Below, piece by piece: positions 3,604 through 14,158 of a stretch of DNA of 15,105 nucleotides. The number at the start of each line of letters is the position of its first letter. The first letter of the stretch is position 1. Source of the DNA: a virus. The translations under genes were made by a program, and so were the position numbers. The notes beneath the pieces were generated by a model, which was not told the DNA's origin, did no database searches, and saw only the letters and a program-made list of their open reading frames with translations. The stretch is from UHGV virus genome UHGV-0264650; one strand, 5' to 3'.

Positions 3604-4064
3604 ACTTTGTAACCTTCTACAATTTCTTTATAAATATCATCGGCGTGGTTAGGATCTTCGAATGCCTTACGCAAGAATCCAGGCTCCGCATTTGGATCCC
3701 AATAATTACCCTTTCCAGTACCACCACCAAAACTAATTACCTGTTTCGGTCCGAAATCTGAAAGGTTATTCGTTTTGCCGAAATCTTCGCGCGGCTGGCC
3801 TTTTAATGTACCCGGCATATTGTGCACCCATTCAGCGTAGCGGGCCGTATATCCCAGGCGTAATTGCATACCGTCCGCCGTGTTCCCTATGTACTGGAAC
3901 TGACTGTTAATTAAGAAGCCCGTATCGACTGGCGTCATATTAGCCGCGAAGCCACCAGCCAGCATACCGACGCGCCATAAAACTTCGTGCGTCTTTTTAT
4001 CGGTGATTTCCTTTAGCTCCTGCTTTAATCTCTCACGGACGCGTTTAACCCCCTTGATAGGCAT
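3600..4064 (-). CDS. Putative neck/tail-component protein, HK97 gp10-like by recollection
   Basis: 154-aa ORF MPIKGVKRVRERLKQELKEI...TPVDTGFLINS; size, N-terminal basic region and the TPVDTG-containing stretch resemble the HK97 gp10 family as I recall it. Unverified. Confidence 0.45.
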   Translation of the reverse strand: MPIKGVKRVRERLKQELKEITDKKTHEVLWRVGMLAGGFAANMTPVDTGFLINSQFQYIGNTADGMQLRLGYTARYAEWVHNMPGTLKGQPREDFGKTNNLSDFGPKQVISFGGGTGKGNYWDPNAEPGFLRKAFEDPNHADDIYKEIVEGYKV

Positions 4065-4619: not shown

Positions 4620-5002
4620 ATCCTCCTGCTCTTACCAATCCACAGCCCGGCGTGCGCGGTGTTTTCTGGATCTGGTGGAATTAGTTCGGCTGTACAATGG
4701 TGTTTGTCCAGTGAGTAAAGCAACGAATAGGCCGCCTTCCATCGCTTATTAAAATCGACATAGCGGTAAGACTGGCTTGCACCGTTCGGACCAGTCTGCG
4801 AGGAAACGTATTTATCAGCCTGGCTGAGTCCTAACAGGCCAATGAGATAAAGCTGAATCAATGTTGCAGTGGAGGACGGATAATTGGCATCAAGGCATTC
4901 ATTAACGCTATTTGCCTGCTCCACCAGCAAAGATAAAACCACGTCTGGTATTTCAATCCCCTGGCTTTCGAGATATTCCCGCGCCTGTTGTGTGGTAACC
5001 AT
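4616..5002 (-). CDS. Putative head-tail connector/adaptor protein
   Basis: ORF-track ORF 4616-5038, but the ATG at 5002 has a GGAGA SD 7 nt upstream and lies just downstream of the capsid terminator, whereas the 5038 ATG sits inside the terminator hairpin with no SD. Product MVTTQQAREYLESQGIEIPDVV... First gene after the major capsid gene, the usual place for the head-tail adaptor. Confidence 0.5.
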   Translation of the reverse strand: MVTTQQAREYLESQGIEIPDVVLSLLVEQANSVNECLDANYPSSTATLIQLYLIGLLGLSQADKYVSSQTGPNGASQSYRYVDFNKRWKAAYSLLYSLDKHHCTAELIPPDPENTAHAGLWIGKSRRM

Positions 5003-5020
5003 TTTGTTTTCTCCACATAC

Positions 5021-5048
5021 AAAAAAAATCCCCGGCATTGCGCCGGGG
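5021..5048 (-). terminator. Intrinsic terminator (likely partial/attenuating) downstream of the major capsid gene
   Basis: On the minus strand: CCCCGGC-GCAAT-GCCGGGG (7-bp GC stem, plus 5030-5048) followed by A then TTTTTTTT (plus 5021-5028), 20 nt after the capsid stop at 5068. Confidence 0.65.
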
Positions 5049-5067
5049 AGCTACAGAAACATATCAA

Positions 5068-6132
5068 TCAGGTATTGCTGCCGTAGACCACTCCTGAACG
5101 ACCTTCCATGTCACGGGTGATTTGCAGACCCTCAGCGGACATGATGCGGAAGTTGTAGTTATCAGTCGGCATCATGCGCGGTAACGGTACAACACCAGTA
5201 GTCATACCAACCAGCGGGGTAATTACGCTACGGCTGCGCTGATAAGCAATGAACTCGTTGCCGGACAATGCATAGCTCTGGCGAATCTCACCAACCGGAG
5301 CGAACGGCATAATGACGCTCAGCACGCTACCGACTACAGCACCATTGACGATGTGCGGACGGGCCAGGTTAGCCATGATCTCAGGCGATACCCACATGAC
5401 GTCGTATTTAGCTACGAAGTTGGCGCGAGCCAGCTTGCCGAACTCACCAACGGTGAAGAAGTCAATGATCTTGTCGAAAACCGCAGTAGTCAGGTCGACT
5501 TTTGCGACGGTTTTTAGTTTAAGCTGCTGGGTGCTTTTGTGGTTTTTAATACCCATAGCTTTATGACCATCAACCACGATGCGATCGTTACCATTCAGGT
5601 AGAACTGGACGCGTGCTTTGTTGAATTTTTTCAGTTTCAGGCGCTGGCTATCCAGGGCAAGGTCGATGCCTACAGTATTCAAGCCCTGAGCGAGACGCCA
5701 GTTAACACCGTAACCAGCCGCGAACATCGGGATCGGGTCGCCATCGCTACCGTATTCGGTGTGATCAAAGCCGTGTGGCGCTTGACCATCCATAGACATC
5801 ACAACTTCATCATTGATGTCACCGGATACGTTGTACATTTTCAGCGTTTTACCGACTGGCAGTACGGTTTGTACACCCATCAGGTCGTTTACGATCTCAA
5901 TACCGATTTCTTCGGTGTTCAGTTCGATGATCTGGTTATCAATTTCTTTCCAGAATTCTCTTGCGAAGCCGCCGACGGCGTTACAGGCCAACATTTCAGC
6001 GGTCATGTTTGCTTTGTTTGCTGCAATCATGGCGTTATGCTGATCGTTGAAGATATTGCGTTGCGCCCACAGTTCTTTCCAATGGCTCTGCATCCGGGAG
6101 TTGGCGGCAAGGTTTTCTTTAGTAAAGTACAT
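5068..6132 (-). CDS. Putative major capsid protein
   Basis: 354-aa ORF with SD GGGGA 6 nt upstream of ATG 6132. Follows portal, F-like and scaffold-like genes, and is followed by a strong terminator. Size and position are typical of a major capsid protein; family not verified. Confidence 0.65.
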   Translation of the reverse strand: MYFTKENLAANSRMQSHWKELWAQRNIFNDQHNAMIAANKANMTAEMLACNAVGGFAREFWKEIDNQIIELNTEEIGIEIVNDLMGVQTVLPVGKTLKMYNVSGDINDEVVMSMDGQAPHGFDHTEYGSDGDPIPMFAAGYGVNWRLAQGLNTVGIDLALDSQRLKLKKFNKARVQFYLNGNDRIVVDGHKAMGIKNHKSTQQLKLKTVAKVDLTTAVFDKIIDFFTVGEFGKLARANFVAKYDVMWVSPEIMANLARPHIVNGAVVGSVLSVIMPFAPVGEIRQSYALSGNEFIAYQRSRSVITPLVGMTTGVVPLPRMMPTDNYNFRIMSAEGLQITRDMEGRSGVVYGSNT

Positions 6133-11754: not shown

Positions 11755-12240
11755 TCACACCTCATCTTCAACTTCCTGGACGATGCGGGCGATCTCTTCT
11801 TTCGTTACTTCAACCCGGACGGGTGCTTCCTCCCTGTTGCCGACGATCTCCTGTGTGACGCGTTCACCATATTTACGCGGTTGCAGTTTTGCCAGTAACC
11901 ACTTGCGCGTTTCAATCATCAGTTGATGGCGGCGGCATTCATCTTTATCAATGTTCTCCGCTGCATCGGCTATATCTATGATTTCATCAGCCAATACCTC
12001 AAACCCTATTTCCTTCGCGCGTATGTACATGTCCGAAAACTCCGGAACATCTCTGAACCATTTAAGGATTGTCGAACGCGTTGGCATACCTGGCATCTTC
12101 GAGATCTTATTAATACTCTTACCGTCCGCCACCAGCTCACAGATCTCTAATGCCTTTTCTTCGGTATAACCATGCGGACGGCCCACCCTTTTTGCGGCTG
12201 GCTTTTTATCGTCAGCCTTCGCCTTTTTCGTGCGGGCCAT
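11755..12240 (-). CDS. terS: Putative terminase small subunit
   Basis: 161-aa ORF directly upstream of and translationally coupled to TerL. Basic N-terminus (MARTKKAKADDKKPAAKRVGRP) followed by a helix-turn-helix-like segment, acidic C-terminus. SD GAGGTG 4 nt upstream of ATG 12240. Confidence 0.7.
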   Translation of the reverse strand: MARTKKAKADDKKPAAKRVGRPHGYTEEKALEICELVADGKSINKISKMPGMPTRSTILKWFRDVPEFSDMYIRAKEIGFEVLADEIIDIADAAENIDKDECRRHQLMIETRKWLLAKLQPRKYGERVTQEIVGNREEAPVRVEVTKEEIARIVQEVEDEV

Positions 12241-12250
12241 AATTCACCTC

Positions 12251-12496
12251 TTAATTATCTTTTTCAAATCTTAATTTAAATTCATTCATCATCTTTTCTA
12301 CTTCCTGTTCGGAAAGATAGATGGTTTCATTATTTTCTGCTGAATCAAGTGCCTTTCTTATTTCATCTGCTATTTTTAGCTCCTCATCGTTCACAACGTC
12401 ACCTTTTAATATTTGTTGATGATATATACGCAAGCCACAAAACTTGCGCAGTATGTTAATACTTCCAACCAGTCGAATAGCTCTTTCACTGTTCAC
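12251..12496 (-). CDS. AT-rich hypothetical protein (81 aa from GTG 12496, or 47 aa from GTG 12394)
   Basis: Open frame ends 10 nt before the TerS start. The first in-frame start (GTG 12496) has GAAGG only about 1 nt upstream; the internal GTG at 12394 has AGGTGA 4 nt upstream. Acidic product (..DEELKIADEIRKALDSAENNETIYLSEQEVEKMMNEFKLRFEKDN). Noticeably AT-richer than the neighbouring terminase genes. Confidence 0.4.
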   Translation of the reverse strand: MNSERAIRLVGSINILRKFCGLRIYHQQILKGDVVNDEELKIADEIRKALDSAENNETIYLSEQEVEKMMNEFKLRFEKDN

Positions 12497-12499
12497 CCT

Positions 12500-12571
12500 T
12501 CACATAATCGAAAGCGCCCATGTAATAAGGACGATAGCCAAAACCATATAGATAAAATCTGACTCTCTCAT
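12500..12571 (-). CDS. Mini-ORF 9 of array: 23-aa hydrophobic peptide MRESDFIYMVLAIVLITWALSIM
   Basis: ATG 12571 with strong SD AAGGTGG 5 nt upstream; the SD overlaps the stop of mini-ORF 8. One predicted transmembrane helix. Confidence 0.4.
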   Translation of the reverse strand: MRESDFIYMVLAIVLITWALSIM

Positions 12572-12585
12572 ATTGTCCACCTTAC

Positions 12586-12654
12586 TTACGCAAAGAAAAT
12601 GATAACAGTTAACAGCGAACTTATAGCCATGATTAAGAAATCGCGGTCAGACAT
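12586..12654 (-). CDS. Mini-ORF 8 of array: 22-aa hydrophobic peptide MSDRDFLIMAISSLLTVIIFFA
   Basis: ATG 12654 overlaps the 3' end of mini-ORF 7 (out of frame); only a weak GGGG about 10 nt upstream. Hydrophobic C-terminal half. Confidence 0.25.
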   Translation of the reverse strand: MSDRDFLIMAISSLLTVIIFFA

Positions 12655-12721
12655 TGATAATAAACCCCACAATAACAACCGCTGCGATACATACGAATAA
12701 TACAGCTTCGATAGTTTCCAT
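12647..12721 (-). CDS. Mini-ORF 7 of array: 24-aa hydrophobic peptide METIEAVLFVCIAAVVIVGFIINV
   Basis: ATG 12721 with SD AGGTGA 4 nt upstream, overlapping the TAG stop of mini-ORF 6 (TAGGTGA-N4-ATGGA). Resembles mini-ORF 4 at the N-terminus (M-D/E-x-x-E ... C at position 11). Confidence 0.4.
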   Translation of the reverse strand: METIEAVLFVCIAAVVIVGFIINV

Positions 12722-12729
12722 ATATTCAC

Positions 12730-12798
12730 CTATTGAGTCAGCGCGGTCATGGTAAGAACAATCGCAACGATCAGGAAAAAGAAATCAAGCCATTTCAT
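12730..12798 (-). CDS. Mini-ORF 6 of array: 22-aa hydrophobic peptide MKWLDFFFLIVAIVLTMTALTQ
   Basis: ATG 12798 overlaps the TGA stop of mini-ORF 5 (ATGA); SD GGGAG 8 nt upstream. Confidence 0.35.
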   Translation of the reverse strand: MKWLDFFFLIVAIVLTMTALTQ

Positions 12799-12860
12799 TT
12801 TTTAAACTCCCGATAAACATCTACGGCAATGACTACAACTACAGCCACCAGCAATAGCAT
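12795..12860 (-). CDS. Mini-ORF 5 of array: 21-aa hydrophobic peptide MLLLVAVVVVIAVDVYREFKK
   Basis: ATG 12860 lies 1 nt after the stop of mini-ORF 4 (TGA-G-ATG); weak SD, so expression would depend on coupling. Confidence 0.25.
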   Translation of the reverse strand: MLLLVAVVVVIAVDVYREFKK

Positions 12861-12861
12861 C

Positions 12862-12969
12862 TCATATGCGTTCATTGACACTACCTATAACCAGACCAAT
12901 GATGATAATTACGGCTACTACGCCCAACATCATTCCGCACATAATAGCCAGTAGTTCGAATATATCCAT
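12862..12969 (-). CDS. Mini-ORF 4 of array: 35-aa hydrophobic peptide MDIFELLAIMCGMMLGVVAVIIIIGLVIGSVNERI
   Basis: ATG 12969 with SD AGGTGA 4 nt upstream, overlapping the TAG stop of mini-ORF 3. This is the C-terminal part of ORF-track ORF 12862-13074, whose N-terminal half is a read-through of intergenic and other-frame sequence. Confidence 0.4.
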   Translation of the reverse strand: MDIFELLAIMCGMMLGVVAVIIIIGLVIGSVNERI

Positions 12970-12977
12970 GCAGTCAC

Positions 12978-13052
12978 CTATACAACATTTTTCCACCAGA
13001 AATAGATAATGACGGCGACCAACGACCACCAGATAGGACCGTAAATATTCAT
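12978..13052 (-). CDS. Mini-ORF 3 of array: 24-aa hydrophobic peptide MNIYGPIWWSLVAVIIYFWWKNVV
   Basis: ATG 13052 with GAAGG 8 nt upstream; Trp-rich single hydrophobic segment. Confidence 0.3.
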   Translation of the reverse strand: MNIYGPIWWSLVAVIIYFWWKNVV

Positions 13053-13130
13053 GGTGAATACCTTCAGCTTTCAATGAATATCATGATCGCCAGCCATACA
13101 GCGACGCATAAAGAAAGGATAACGAGCGGG

Positions 13131-13247
13131 TCAATCATCTCGCCCCTCCAACCAGTGCTTGATCTTTGCGTTTATTAGTGCAACTGCAATAAAACCCACC
13201 AGATATACAGAAATGCCGATCAATCCGGCAATGATATAATCATCCAT
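13131..13247 (-). CDS. Mini-ORF 2 of array: 38-aa membrane peptide MDDYIIAGLIGISVYLVGFIAVALINAKIKHWLEGRDD
   Basis: ATG 13247 with GGTGA 8 nt upstream (the SD lies in the last codons of mini-ORF 1). One hydrophobic helix followed by a charged C-terminal tail. Confidence 0.35.
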   Translation of the reverse strand: MDDYIIAGLIGISVYLVGFIAVALINAKIKHWLEGRDD

Positions 13248-13251
13248 AACA

Positions 13252-13320
13252 TTATTCACCGACCAGTAATATTACAGCGGCAGCCATTCCGATAAATAAA
13301 CCTGACAGAAAAGTAAGCAT
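13252..13320 (-). CDS. Mini-ORF 1 of array: 22-aa hydrophobic peptide MLTFLSGLFIGMAAAVILLVGE
   Basis: ATG 13320 lies 2 nt after the TGA stop of the 185-aa gene, with GGGGGTGA immediately upstream (coupled start). Confidence 0.35.
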   Translation of the reverse strand: MLTFLSGLFIGMAAAVILLVGE

Positions 13321-13322
13321 AA

Positions 13323-13880
13323 TCACCCCCGTTTAAAGCTCATAACACGCGGTACAAGCGCTTCTTTTGCTTTCGGCTTACGTTTGCCTTTCTTAGCTGG
13401 TTTTTGCTTGTCTTTTGCCTCATTAGCAATATCCCTTGCCTCTTGTGCGCTAAGACGTTCGGTTACTTCTTCTGCCTGCATTGCTGCAACCTGTGCTTCG
13501 TTTGATTCATCCAGGATTGGGAAGAATGCGTCAAAGATGCGGCCTACCATGTAAGCGTAAGTCTCGTTCGCCGGATGAGTTGGATCAGTGGTCGCCACGA
13601 CGCCAACATCACTTAGAACGTGGAATGTAGTGTGGGCCGCTTCATATACCAGTGTTCCTAACTCATTGTCGAATACTGCGATCACATAGAAATTACCGCC
13701 TTTCTCACCAGTACAAGTAAGCGTTAATCCTCCTGCCAGTTCGAAATCAGGTTCGATTGGTATTCCGGCCCTTTCGCAAAATTCATAAAACATGTCGCGG
13801 GTCGGGCAGAAGAAAACTGTTGTATGCTCAAAGAGCGGAACTTTGAATTGAGGCAACTTAATGCCTTTAGCCTTAGCCAT
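13323..13880 (-). CDS. Hypothetical protein (185 aa) with a globular N-terminal region and a highly basic Lys-rich C-terminal tail
   Basis: ATG 13880 with GAGGA 8 nt upstream. C-terminus EAKDKQKPAKKGKRKPKAKEALVPRVMSFKRG. Lies between the lysis cassette and the mini-ORF array. I could not assign a family from the sequence alone. Confidence 0.55.
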   Translation of the reverse strand: MAKAKGIKLPQFKVPLFEHTTVFFCPTRDMFYEFCERAGIPIEPDFELAGGLTLTCTGEKGGNFYVIAVFDNELGTLVYEAAHTTFHVLSDVGVVATTDPTHPANETYAYMVGRIFDAFFPILDESNEAQVAAMQAEEVTERLSAQEARDIANEAKDKQKPAKKGKRKPKAKEALVPRVMSFKRG

Positions 13881-14158
13881 CAGAATATTCCTCTATCCTG
13901 AAAAATATAACCCCCGCAAAACTGGACACCGCAGGGAGTGAAAACAGCTATAAAACACTAAAACGGCGCTGCATAAGTACAGTTTTTAGAATTTTATAAA
14001 ACTGGAGAATGGTGCTTTCTTCTACCCAGGTAGCGCCGGACCTGTTAATGGGACTGTTGATCCGGTATTACGTGTTTTTGACTTTTCCGCCGTCGCTCGC
14101 GGGAAGGATTGGCCCGGTTATGGCTGGCTGGCAGAAACGGCGACACGTCCACGCGCTG

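Follow-up and report, generated by a model that had tools for sequence, protein, structure and literature searches.

Stop-Shine-Dalgarno-start junctions in a micro-gene array of an mEpimmI-type Escherichia coli phage: probable translation signals rather than marks of duplication

Between the lysis genes and the terminase genes of the virus genome UHGV-0264650, an array of very small open reading frames (ORFs) contains a junction that recurs almost unchanged: a TAG stop codon fused to an AGGTGA Shine-Dalgarno (SD) site, a spacer of 4 nucleotides (nt) and ATGGA. The whole stretch analysed, called the window below, is 15,105 nt long and is, on its sequence, that of an mEpimmI-type (mEp021-like) temperate Escherichia coli phage. 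A preliminary description read the recurrence as a sign that the array grew by duplication of a two-ORF unit, and the locus raises two questions: do such junctions record duplications, and are the ORFs that they join maintained genes? Our analysis favours, with a probability of about 0.7, the explanation that the junctions are translation (re)initiation signals in one packed late-operon message and owe their likeness to a shared design, not to a recent block duplication, the array itself having evolved by old single-gene duplications and turnover.

The ORFs of the array were called with an SD-aware procedure and named W1 to W12 (Table 1); the preliminary description had missed the first of them, and its mini-ORF n is our W(n+1). 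On the minus strand, the two flagged regions read gtaTAGGTGActgcATGGATATATTCGAA (12983-12955) and caaTAGGTGAatatATGGAAACTATCGAA (12735-12707), and TAGGTGA-N4-ATGGA stands in them exactly as described, at 12980-12965 and 12732-12717. A third junction (mini-ORF8 to mini-ORF9) is present as well, as gcgTAAGTAAGGTGGacaatATG at 12591-12569. The peptides downstream of the first two begin with MDIFELLAIMCG (W5) and METIEAVLFVCI (W8), and both have a Cys at residue 11, as had been reported. In a repeat search, this pair was the top direct repeat of the window (27 nt, 74% identity, spacing 248 nt). The exact pattern TAGGTGANNNNATGGA occurred twice in the window, against 0.00 expected from 200 dinucleotide shuffles, and is therefore not due to chance relative to random sequence. 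The bases that the junctions have in common are functional elements, namely a stop codon, an SD site, the ATG start and a GA that gives the second codon its acidic residue. Elsewhere the junctions differ: none of the four spacer bases is alike, and only one of the six upstream bases is (the final A of gttgtA and actcaA). A gapless 27-mer match of 20/27 was attained in 7.7% of dinucleotide shuffles of the 931-nt array.

AGGTGA is complementary to UCACCU in the 3' tail of 16S rRNA, and with a spacing of 4 nt it is equivalent to a canonical GGAGG spaced by about 7 nt. In the window, four instances of AGGTGA-N3-5-ATG were counted where 0.29 would be expected; besides those at the two flagged junctions, they precede the small terminase subunit gene TerS (TAAGAGGTGAattATG) and a 228-amino-acid (aa) ORF. 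Sites of the GGTGA type stand ahead of Rz, W1, W2, W5, W8, TerS and the 228-aa ORF, while W12 uses TAAAAGGTGAcgttGTG. We then compared the window with its relatives in a sample of 50 arrays, made up of 47 IMG/VR loci found via the 185-aa protein encoded upstream of the array, two GenBank phages and the window; in all 50, the 185-aa gene and TerS flank a gap of 322-1158 nt. Peptide families, among them those labelled x below, were built by average linkage on global identity, single linkage on local alignments having been discarded because it fused nearly all of the hydrophobic peptides. In these relatives, TAGGTGA stays with the gene upstream of it (W4, x7, x11 or W7) as a fixed tail, independent of the gene that comes next. 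Of the 33 loci with W4 (one frame-altered copy included), 32 have TAGGTGA at its stop and one has TAGGTGG, and what follows is W5, W6 or x7; the TAGGTGA of W7 is followed by three divergent N-terminal alleles of W8, which is polymorphic in the relatives (METIE, MDVIE and MNAID). W4 and W7 show no similarity to each other (z = 1.0), and the spacer after TAGGTGA varies freely (cggc, ctgc, aagc, agc, att, atat, gcga, acgc). An M-x-x-x-(D/E) start is found in about half of the families (W4-W10, x1, x3, x6 and x11). A single, conserved Cys at residue 11 occurs in W3 as well as in W5 and W8, and by our own estimate, in which about a dozen conserved Cys are distributed among some 14 helix positions, this coincidence is probably chance. 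Because the site is generic and is the fixed tail of the upstream gene, the 27-mer match is not significant, W5 is accessory and the N-terminal pattern is widespread, the motif is no mark of duplication, contrary to the use made of it earlier; it is an ordinary ribosome-binding site (RBS) fused to the preceding stop codon, a generic strong site in this phage.

The second question can be answered more firmly. The 50 arrays hold 466 intact ORF instances in 28 peptide families, with 3-12 ORFs per array (median 9), and the order of the families is fixed. The Nei-Gojobori ratio of nonsynonymous to synonymous differences per site (pN/pS) was 0.24 overall in the called frame, versus 0.96 and 1.50 in the alternative frames, and in each of the 15 families tested, the in-frame value (0.05-0.39) was the lowest of the three. 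These results showed that the micro-ORFs are real genes under purifying selection. The preliminary description was thus right in regarding them as maintained genes and not random frames, and it is the frame-specific selection, not the junction, that shows this. Of the 416 intercistronic distances across the sample, 398 lie within -14 to +18 nt, with modes at +8 (77), -4 (73) and +11 (44). One could still argue that the spacer is not translated, that the mini-ORFs in it are open by chance and that the motif is incidental, since these ORFs are of very small size (22-38 aa), have no counterpart among the Pfam, NCBIfam and PHROG families and are covered by little or no annotation in most RefSeq E. 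coli genomes. This proposal is already refuted by the frame-specific selection in all of the families tested, and it also leaves the intact instances in fixed order, the membrane-helix-length hydrophobic core in every peptide and the SD match of at least 4 nt at all but one (W9) of the 13 starts, W1 through TerS, without a place; we consider its probability close to nil.

Paralogy was evaluated for 210 family pairs, using hhalign of the family alignments with reversed-profile controls and an N-anchored ungapped profile score with segment-preserving shuffles. Such shuffles keep the polar cap and the hydrophobic core apart, full-sequence shuffling being too lenient for peptides that all have the cap-plus-core pattern in common. 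The maximum score in the 210 forward-versus-reversed control comparisons was 17.4. The flagged pair, W5 and W8, scored 16.2 (probability 24%, 12 aligned columns, rank 20 of 210) in hhalign and z = 2.2 (p about 0.02, rank 19 of 210) in the segment-preserving shuffles, which is a hint of paralogy from sequence and not a demonstration. Higher scores were obtained for W7 and W10 (25.9, E 5e-7, 52% identity over 21 columns; z = 4.2-4.4), W10 and x1 (43.9), W6 and x3 (33.0), W9 and W10 (23.3), and W4 and x3 (29.3), the last two families also having a 16-nt exact DNA match, TACGATCTCATCTGGT, in common. Judged from these comparisons, W7, W10 and x1, W6 and x3, and W4 and x3 are real, old paralogs. A relationship between W6 and W8 is suggestive (score 20.2, probability 70%, p = 0.0015), and W6 is possibly a paralog of W4 as well, while no paralogy signal was found for W6-W9 (p = 0.19) or W7-W9 (p = 0.11). 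Thus, the idea of paralogous modular units holds in so far as the array contains some paralogs, but it does not hold for W5 and W8, which are not demonstrably paralogous.

The paralogs bring us to the hypothesis of a tandem duplication of a multi-ORF block including the junction, under which junction 1 with W5 onwards and junction 2 with W8 onwards would be paralogous copies. The 12 specified bases of TAGGTGA-N4-ATGGA, found twice versus 0.00 expected, are consistent with such an event, as are the W5-W8 peptide signal, the strong W7-W10 match in the same register, a Fisher combination over three ORFs (p = 0.0003, a test picked post hoc) and the unit DNA of W5-W7 versus W8-W10 beyond the junction (p = 0.019). 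Beyond the junction, the other candidate blocks gave p = 0.046 (W6-W7 vs. W8-W9) and 0.036 (best allele pair). A two-ORF variant, W6 and W7 against W8 and W9, could draw on the W6-W8 score and on a 19-nt junction, TAGGTGAaagcATGaacgc, shared in some alleles. However, three ORFs (W5, W6 and W7; 248 nt) separate the two junctions, so the block would consist of three ORFs and not of the two proposed earlier, and there is no two-ORF periodicity: the z-score matrix of W1-W11 has no clean periodic stripe, the mean z being 1.06 for an offset of 2 and 1.52 for one of 3. The absence of a signal for W6-W9 and W7-W9, the modest rank of W5-W8 and the mutual dissimilarity of W4 and W7, whose tail TAGGTGA is, also tell against a block. 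In addition, W5 is missing from more than half of the arrays (Table 1), and without it the same TAGGTGA runs directly into W6. The longest exact repeats within any one array are no longer than 16 nt, and a self-comparison at the DNA level revealed nothing significant beyond the junction motif, the 27-nt match included, which is essentially the outcome that the preliminary description had itself named as telling against duplication. Its other proposed check, the comparison of homologous arrays, did reveal variation in whole-ORF steps, from 3 to 12 ORFs, but copy-number variation of one unit in no array. The W5-W8 pairing is not the best-supported pairing, and no block model is established. Because the DNA and peptide signals for blocks are marginal and not nil, an ancient block duplication keeps some probability, although we consider it unlikely.

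What varies among the arrays is the presence or absence of distinct families in their fixed order; no family occurs twice in any of them, and they differ in steps of one distinct gene or of two coupled genes (W8 with W9, for example). The mean pairwise identity of the relatives drops from about 0.95 across W6-W7 to 0.71-0.81 right after TAGGTGA, and the x7 cassette has TAGGTGA on both sides (L005, L008). Therefore, the junctions coincide with mosaic boundaries. The alleles of W8 suggest, from their sequences, recombination within a few bases of the start codon; the spacer gcga is common to the MDVIE and MNAID alleles. It might be proposed that the junction is a recombination linker, in which the fixed stop-SD sequence marks module edges for the exchange of cassettes or alleles and the junctions are thereby kept alike or homogenised. 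The flanks of x7, the drop in identity immediately past TAGGTGA, the three different genes after W4, the three divergent alleles after W7 and a junction-like relic at the 3' end of W5 (ATAGGTAGTG) are all in line with a linker. Seven bases, however, are far too few for homologous recombination, the invariance is already accounted for by the double duty of stop codon and RBS, some deletions end within genes and not at junctions (L009), and other cassette edges (x1, x3 and W10) lack this motif, which leaves the linker quite improbable. Conserved boundary or "linker" sequences between modules are known from lambdoid and P22-like phages, through the modular theory of Susskind and Botstein and the comparisons of HK620. 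TAGGTGA resembles them as a short fixed sequence at a gene edge beside which the neighbouring module changes, but it is only 7 nt long, and its roles in coding and translation account fully for its conservation. A wider conjecture is that the array is a diversifying cassette locus, from which phages exchange, at the fixed stop-SD junctions, micro-proteins that are bare transmembrane helices, each tuned to bind a different inner-membrane protein of the host or the phage (for example a DNA-entry channel, a transporter or the holin). We think it rather unlikely, and leave it open because of the fixed-order presence and absence of whole genes, the allele replacement right after TAGGTGA, the strong purifying selection on each peptide and the restriction to a single phage lineage. 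If it were true, the phages would have in this locus a compact set of tools with which to time lysis, take over the host or exclude superinfecting phages.

Under the explanation that we favour, in which the junctions are translation signals of a common design, a single message would encode eleven single-helix membrane micro-proteins of 22-38 aa and one hydrophilic protein of 47 aa, between the lysis genes and the terminase. The upstream TAG stop would supply the first bases of AGGTGA, 4 nt ahead of the ATG, and a terminating ribosome would be passed directly to the next start, from gene to gene, by termination-reinitiation coupling. The junctions would be alike through one compact, near-optimal stop-SD-start design, which is used elsewhere in the phage, and through the acidic cap with which most of the array peptides begin. 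The array would have arisen by old single-gene duplications and divergence, by whole-gene gain, loss and decay, and by allele exchange with boundaries at the junctions. Coupling by termination-reinitiation at overlapping stop, SD and start sites is known from bacterial and phage operons. The genes of the array share with these a common direction, gaps of -14 to +14 nt between successive genes in the window, ATGA and ATGxxTGA overlaps (ATGATTGA and ATGTCTGA besides ATGA), stops inside or abutting the next SD site, and an AGGTGA matching the 16S rRNA tail. Same-strand order, minimal or negative spacing and an SD site at or within the upstream stop, by which a coupled polycistron is recognised, are thus all observed, and from them we infer the coupling itself. 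The chain differs from known cases in being unusually long, with 13 consecutive starts, and in having cistrons of only 22-47 codons. Promoter- and terminator-like sites in the array were at or below shuffle expectation (promoter-like, 5 versus 6.4 expected), and an Rfam search of 12000-14000 (E <= 1) gave no match; because there is neither an excess of such sites nor an Rfam match, we read the array as belonging to the late message, which would extend from the lysis genes into the terminase. The peptides probably insert in the inner membrane with the N-terminus out, a topology predicted because of their acidic caps and neutral-to-basic tails, and their targets, late in infection, may be membrane proteins of the host or the phage, with a role for example in lysis timing or exclusion.

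Several points weigh against this explanation. First, the W5-W8 signal is weak but present, and by our own count, 9 of 24 residues are identical between W5 and the MDVIE allele of W8. Second, W7-W10 lies in the same register (offset 3) as W5-W8, and the Fisher value of 0.0003 over W5/W8, W6/W9 and W7/W10, although chosen post hoc, belongs here as well. Third, the W7-W8 (MNAID) and W4-W6 junctions of different phages have the 19 identical bases of TAGGTGAaagcATGaacgc in common, an identity that hints that a junction together with an N-terminus was copied at least once. Fourth, the pN/pS values were computed on ORFs chosen as intact and on pairs without phylogenetic independence.

Table 1. Features of the array and of the genes around it in the window. 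Loci, number of the 50 sampled arrays with the gene; mini-ORF numbers are those of the preliminary description.
Feature	Position	Strand	Description	Loci	pN/pS
Endolysin	15039-14617	minus			
Rz with embedded Rz1	14629-14159	minus			
185-aa gene	13323..13880	minus	phrog_1365, function not assigned; upstream bound of the array	50/50	
W1	13252..13320	minus	22 aa, MLTFLSGLFIGMAAAVILLVGE; one hydrophobic helix, Kyte-Doolittle maximum 2.51	29/50	0.26
W2	13131..13247	minus	38 aa, MDDYIIAGLIGISVYLVGFIAVALINAKIKHWLEGRDD; RBS GGTGA-N8-ATGGA	45/50	0.27
W3	13064..13138	minus	24 aa, MIDPLVILSLCVAVWLAIMIFIES; start overlaps W2 stop (ATGATTGA)	46/50	0.34
W4 (mini-ORF3)	12978..13052	minus	24 aa, MNIYGPIWWSLVAVIIYFWWKNVV; ends in the TAG of TAGGTGA	32/50	0.34
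Junction 1	12965..12980	minus	TAGGTGActgcATGGA; W4 stop TAG, AGGTGA SD, 4-nt spacer, W5 start		
W5 (mini-ORF4)	12862..12969	minus	35 aa, MDIFELLAIMCGMMLGVVAVIIIIGLVIGSVNERI; accessory	22/50	0.15
W6	12795..12875	minus	26 aa, MNAYEMLLLVAVVVVIAVDVYREFKK; 14-nt overlap with W5 end	47/50	0.26
W7 (mini-ORF6)	12730..12798	minus	22 aa, MKWLDFFFLIVAIVLTMTALTQ; ATGA overlap with W6; ends in the TAG of TAGGTGA	46/50	0.13
Junction 2	12717..12732	minus	TAGGTGAatatATGGA; W7 stop TAG, AGGTGA SD, 4-nt spacer, W8 start		
W8 (mini-ORF7)	12647..12721	minus	24 aa, METIEAVLFVCIAAVVIVGFIINV	38/50	0.39
W9	12586..12654	minus	22 aa, MSDRDFLIMAISSLLTVIIFFA; start overlaps W8 stop (ATGTCTGA)		0.33
Junction 3	12569..12588	minus	TAAGTAAGGTGGacaatATG; W9 stop through W10 start		
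W10	12500..12571	minus	23 aa, MRESDFIYMVLAIVLITWALSIM	17/50	0.20
W11	12406..12489	minus	27 aa, MKELFDWLEVLTYCASFVACVYIINKY; GTG start here, ATG in relatives	46/50	0.08
W12	12251..12394	minus	47 aa, hydrophilic; TAAAAGGTGAcgttGTG just before	6/50	
TerS, small terminase subunit	11755..12240	minus	Downstream bound of the array; start TAAGAGGTGAattATG, also of stop-SD-start design		

The array is composed of W1-W11, with one hydrophobic core each, and W12; the 15-residue Kyte-Doolittle maximum of the W1-W11 peptides ranges from 1.65 to 3.33. W11 is the most conserved member, the four arrays without it carrying the allelic x8 and x9. The 3' end of W5, ATAGGTAGTGTCAATG, is itself junction-like. An 81-aa ORF called mechanically at 12251-12496 (minus strand) is probably not a gene: the relatives split this region into W11, in another frame, and W12, with a GTG start after TAAAAGGTGA.

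Scans of the peptides against PHROG, NCBIfam and Pfam revealed no match, the marginal Pfam ones lying far under the cut-offs, and NCBIfam models, which include known E. coli small membrane proteins, identified no family for W1 to W10 at E <= 1. A 42-aa GTG-start form of W2 found 10 E. coli proteins, all unnamed or "hypothetical"; W5, searched against 1.84 billion representative proteins, found only two representative clusters; and tblastn of W11 in a phage collection found only five phages, all of this group (four mEp phages and MagusPhagus). The 1.09-kb array stretch matches mEp554, mEp010, mEp044, mEp013, mEp021 and mEp515, which are temperate E. coli phages of non-lambdoid type, and MagusPhagus with 88-92% identity over partial coverage, and prophages matching it are present in 35 of 5,426 complete E. 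coli genomes. A genome-contig search with the 185-aa protein found nothing. The same search with TerL led to a Pasteurella fragment and, at 68% identity, to a prophage of Providencia, in which no micro-gene array lies upstream of TerS. ST64T and HK620 were the P22-like phages inspected, and neither has a micro-gene array annotated beside its homolog of the N-terminal domain of the 185-aa protein.

Several known classes of small hydrophobic proteins were considered for comparison. AcrZ, MgrB, KdpF, CydX, MgtS and PmrR are single-helix E. coli inner-membrane proteins that modulate larger membrane proteins. The array peptides are like them in size, in having one hydrophobic helix and in their short charged ends; the chromosomal genes, in contrast, are mostly solitary or lie beside their partner, whereas the phage genes form an array of eleven without NCBIfam or Pfam match. 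The type I toxins Ibs, Ldr, TisB, ShoB, DinQ and Hok are hydrophobic peptides of 19-50 aa. Although the array peptides are likewise hydrophobic and small, we rejected an assignment to these toxins, on the grounds that there is no Rfam or antisense RNA match, no promoter excess on either strand, no long structured leader and no family match, and that the genes abut in a polycistron. Holins or antiholins do not seem to fit either, to judge from the sequences: the peptides have 22-38 aa, whereas holins usually reach at least 60 aa and carry a charged tail at the C-terminus; no PHROG, Pfam or NCBIfam model matches; and the relatives have a separate annotated holin of 66 aa, with the endolysin between it and the array. 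The array resembles, by analogy only, the small membrane-protein gene arrays of Arthrobacter phage Clusters AM and AU and of Rhodococcus phages Pepy6 and Poco6 (PMC5513430), which are also runs of genes for small predicted membrane proteins without assigned function, variable among relatives. Those arrays, however, have no sequence relationship to the present one; they are found downstream of the tail genes, and their proteins have 1-5 helices. The present array lies between lysis genes and terminase in a temperate phage of a Gram-negative host and encodes bare single helices of 22-38 aa.

The mEpimmI phages are a group described in PMC11893012 and, according to that paper, prevalent in the human gut; its text has no occurrence of "transmembrane", "small ORF" or "terminase", and our literature search found no description of this array. 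Standard annotation systematically misses the micro-genes, and public records largely omit them or call them "hypothetical". Among the complete E. coli genomes listed with the prophage region, most have no feature or a single "hypothetical protein" annotated over the array. The array is a real, under-annotated and lineage-restricted member of a poorly understood class, the small-membrane-protein clusters of phages. For future work, a stop codon fused to a strong RBS should not be taken as a mark of duplication; the useful part of the locus is what surrounds the junctions, eleven consecutive genes of 22-38 codons, each with a single membrane helix and under purifying selection. They provide a clean, experimentally tractable test set for the role of very small phage membrane proteins, and a caution that gene callers skip such arrays.

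Individual relatives carry altered copies of array genes. In L001 (about 3732-3883) and L003 (about 4954-5103), a non-coding gap of about 150 nt between W10 and W11 holds a decayed x5 remnant (C-terminal ...IYKEAKQRFKGKQ), and array members therefore do decay; an uncovered run of the same size, about 150 nt, is seen in L005, L013, L018, L026 and L034, and L009 has a deletion remnant. W9 of L040 (4743-4811) starts with ACG instead of ATG while the rest of the frame is intact, and is either a recent pseudogene or a gene with a non-canonical start; its near relatives L041-L044 have no callable W9, as far as the gene call goes. An in-frame fusion of W2 and W3 in L023 gives a two-helix ORF of 60 aa (family x15), and W5 of L038 reads through into the W6 region (family x16).

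All of the long ORFs of the window lie on the minus strand, in the order endolysin, Rz/Rz1, 185-aa gene, array, TerS, TerL and portal, and the 1.09 kb between the 185-aa gene and TerS contain no ORF longer than 81 aa. The TGA stop of the 185-aa gene sits within GGGGGTGA, the RBS of W1. The N-terminal 125 residues or so of its product are 33-45% identical to the P22-like ORFs ST64T orf-129, HK620 hkcC and epsilon34 gp70, and orf-129 of ST64T is likewise located between the lysis genes and the small terminase gene; only the mEpimmI group has the Lys-rich C-terminal tail. From the Rz stop to the start of the 185-aa gene (13881-14158, minus strand), 278 nt are without a convincing ORF, the only candidates being GTG frames of 21 and 35 aa, and this stretch may be a regulatory or packaging site. 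The annotation of MagusPhagus places two small coding sequences, of 31 and 35 aa, between Rz and its homolog of the 185-aa gene.

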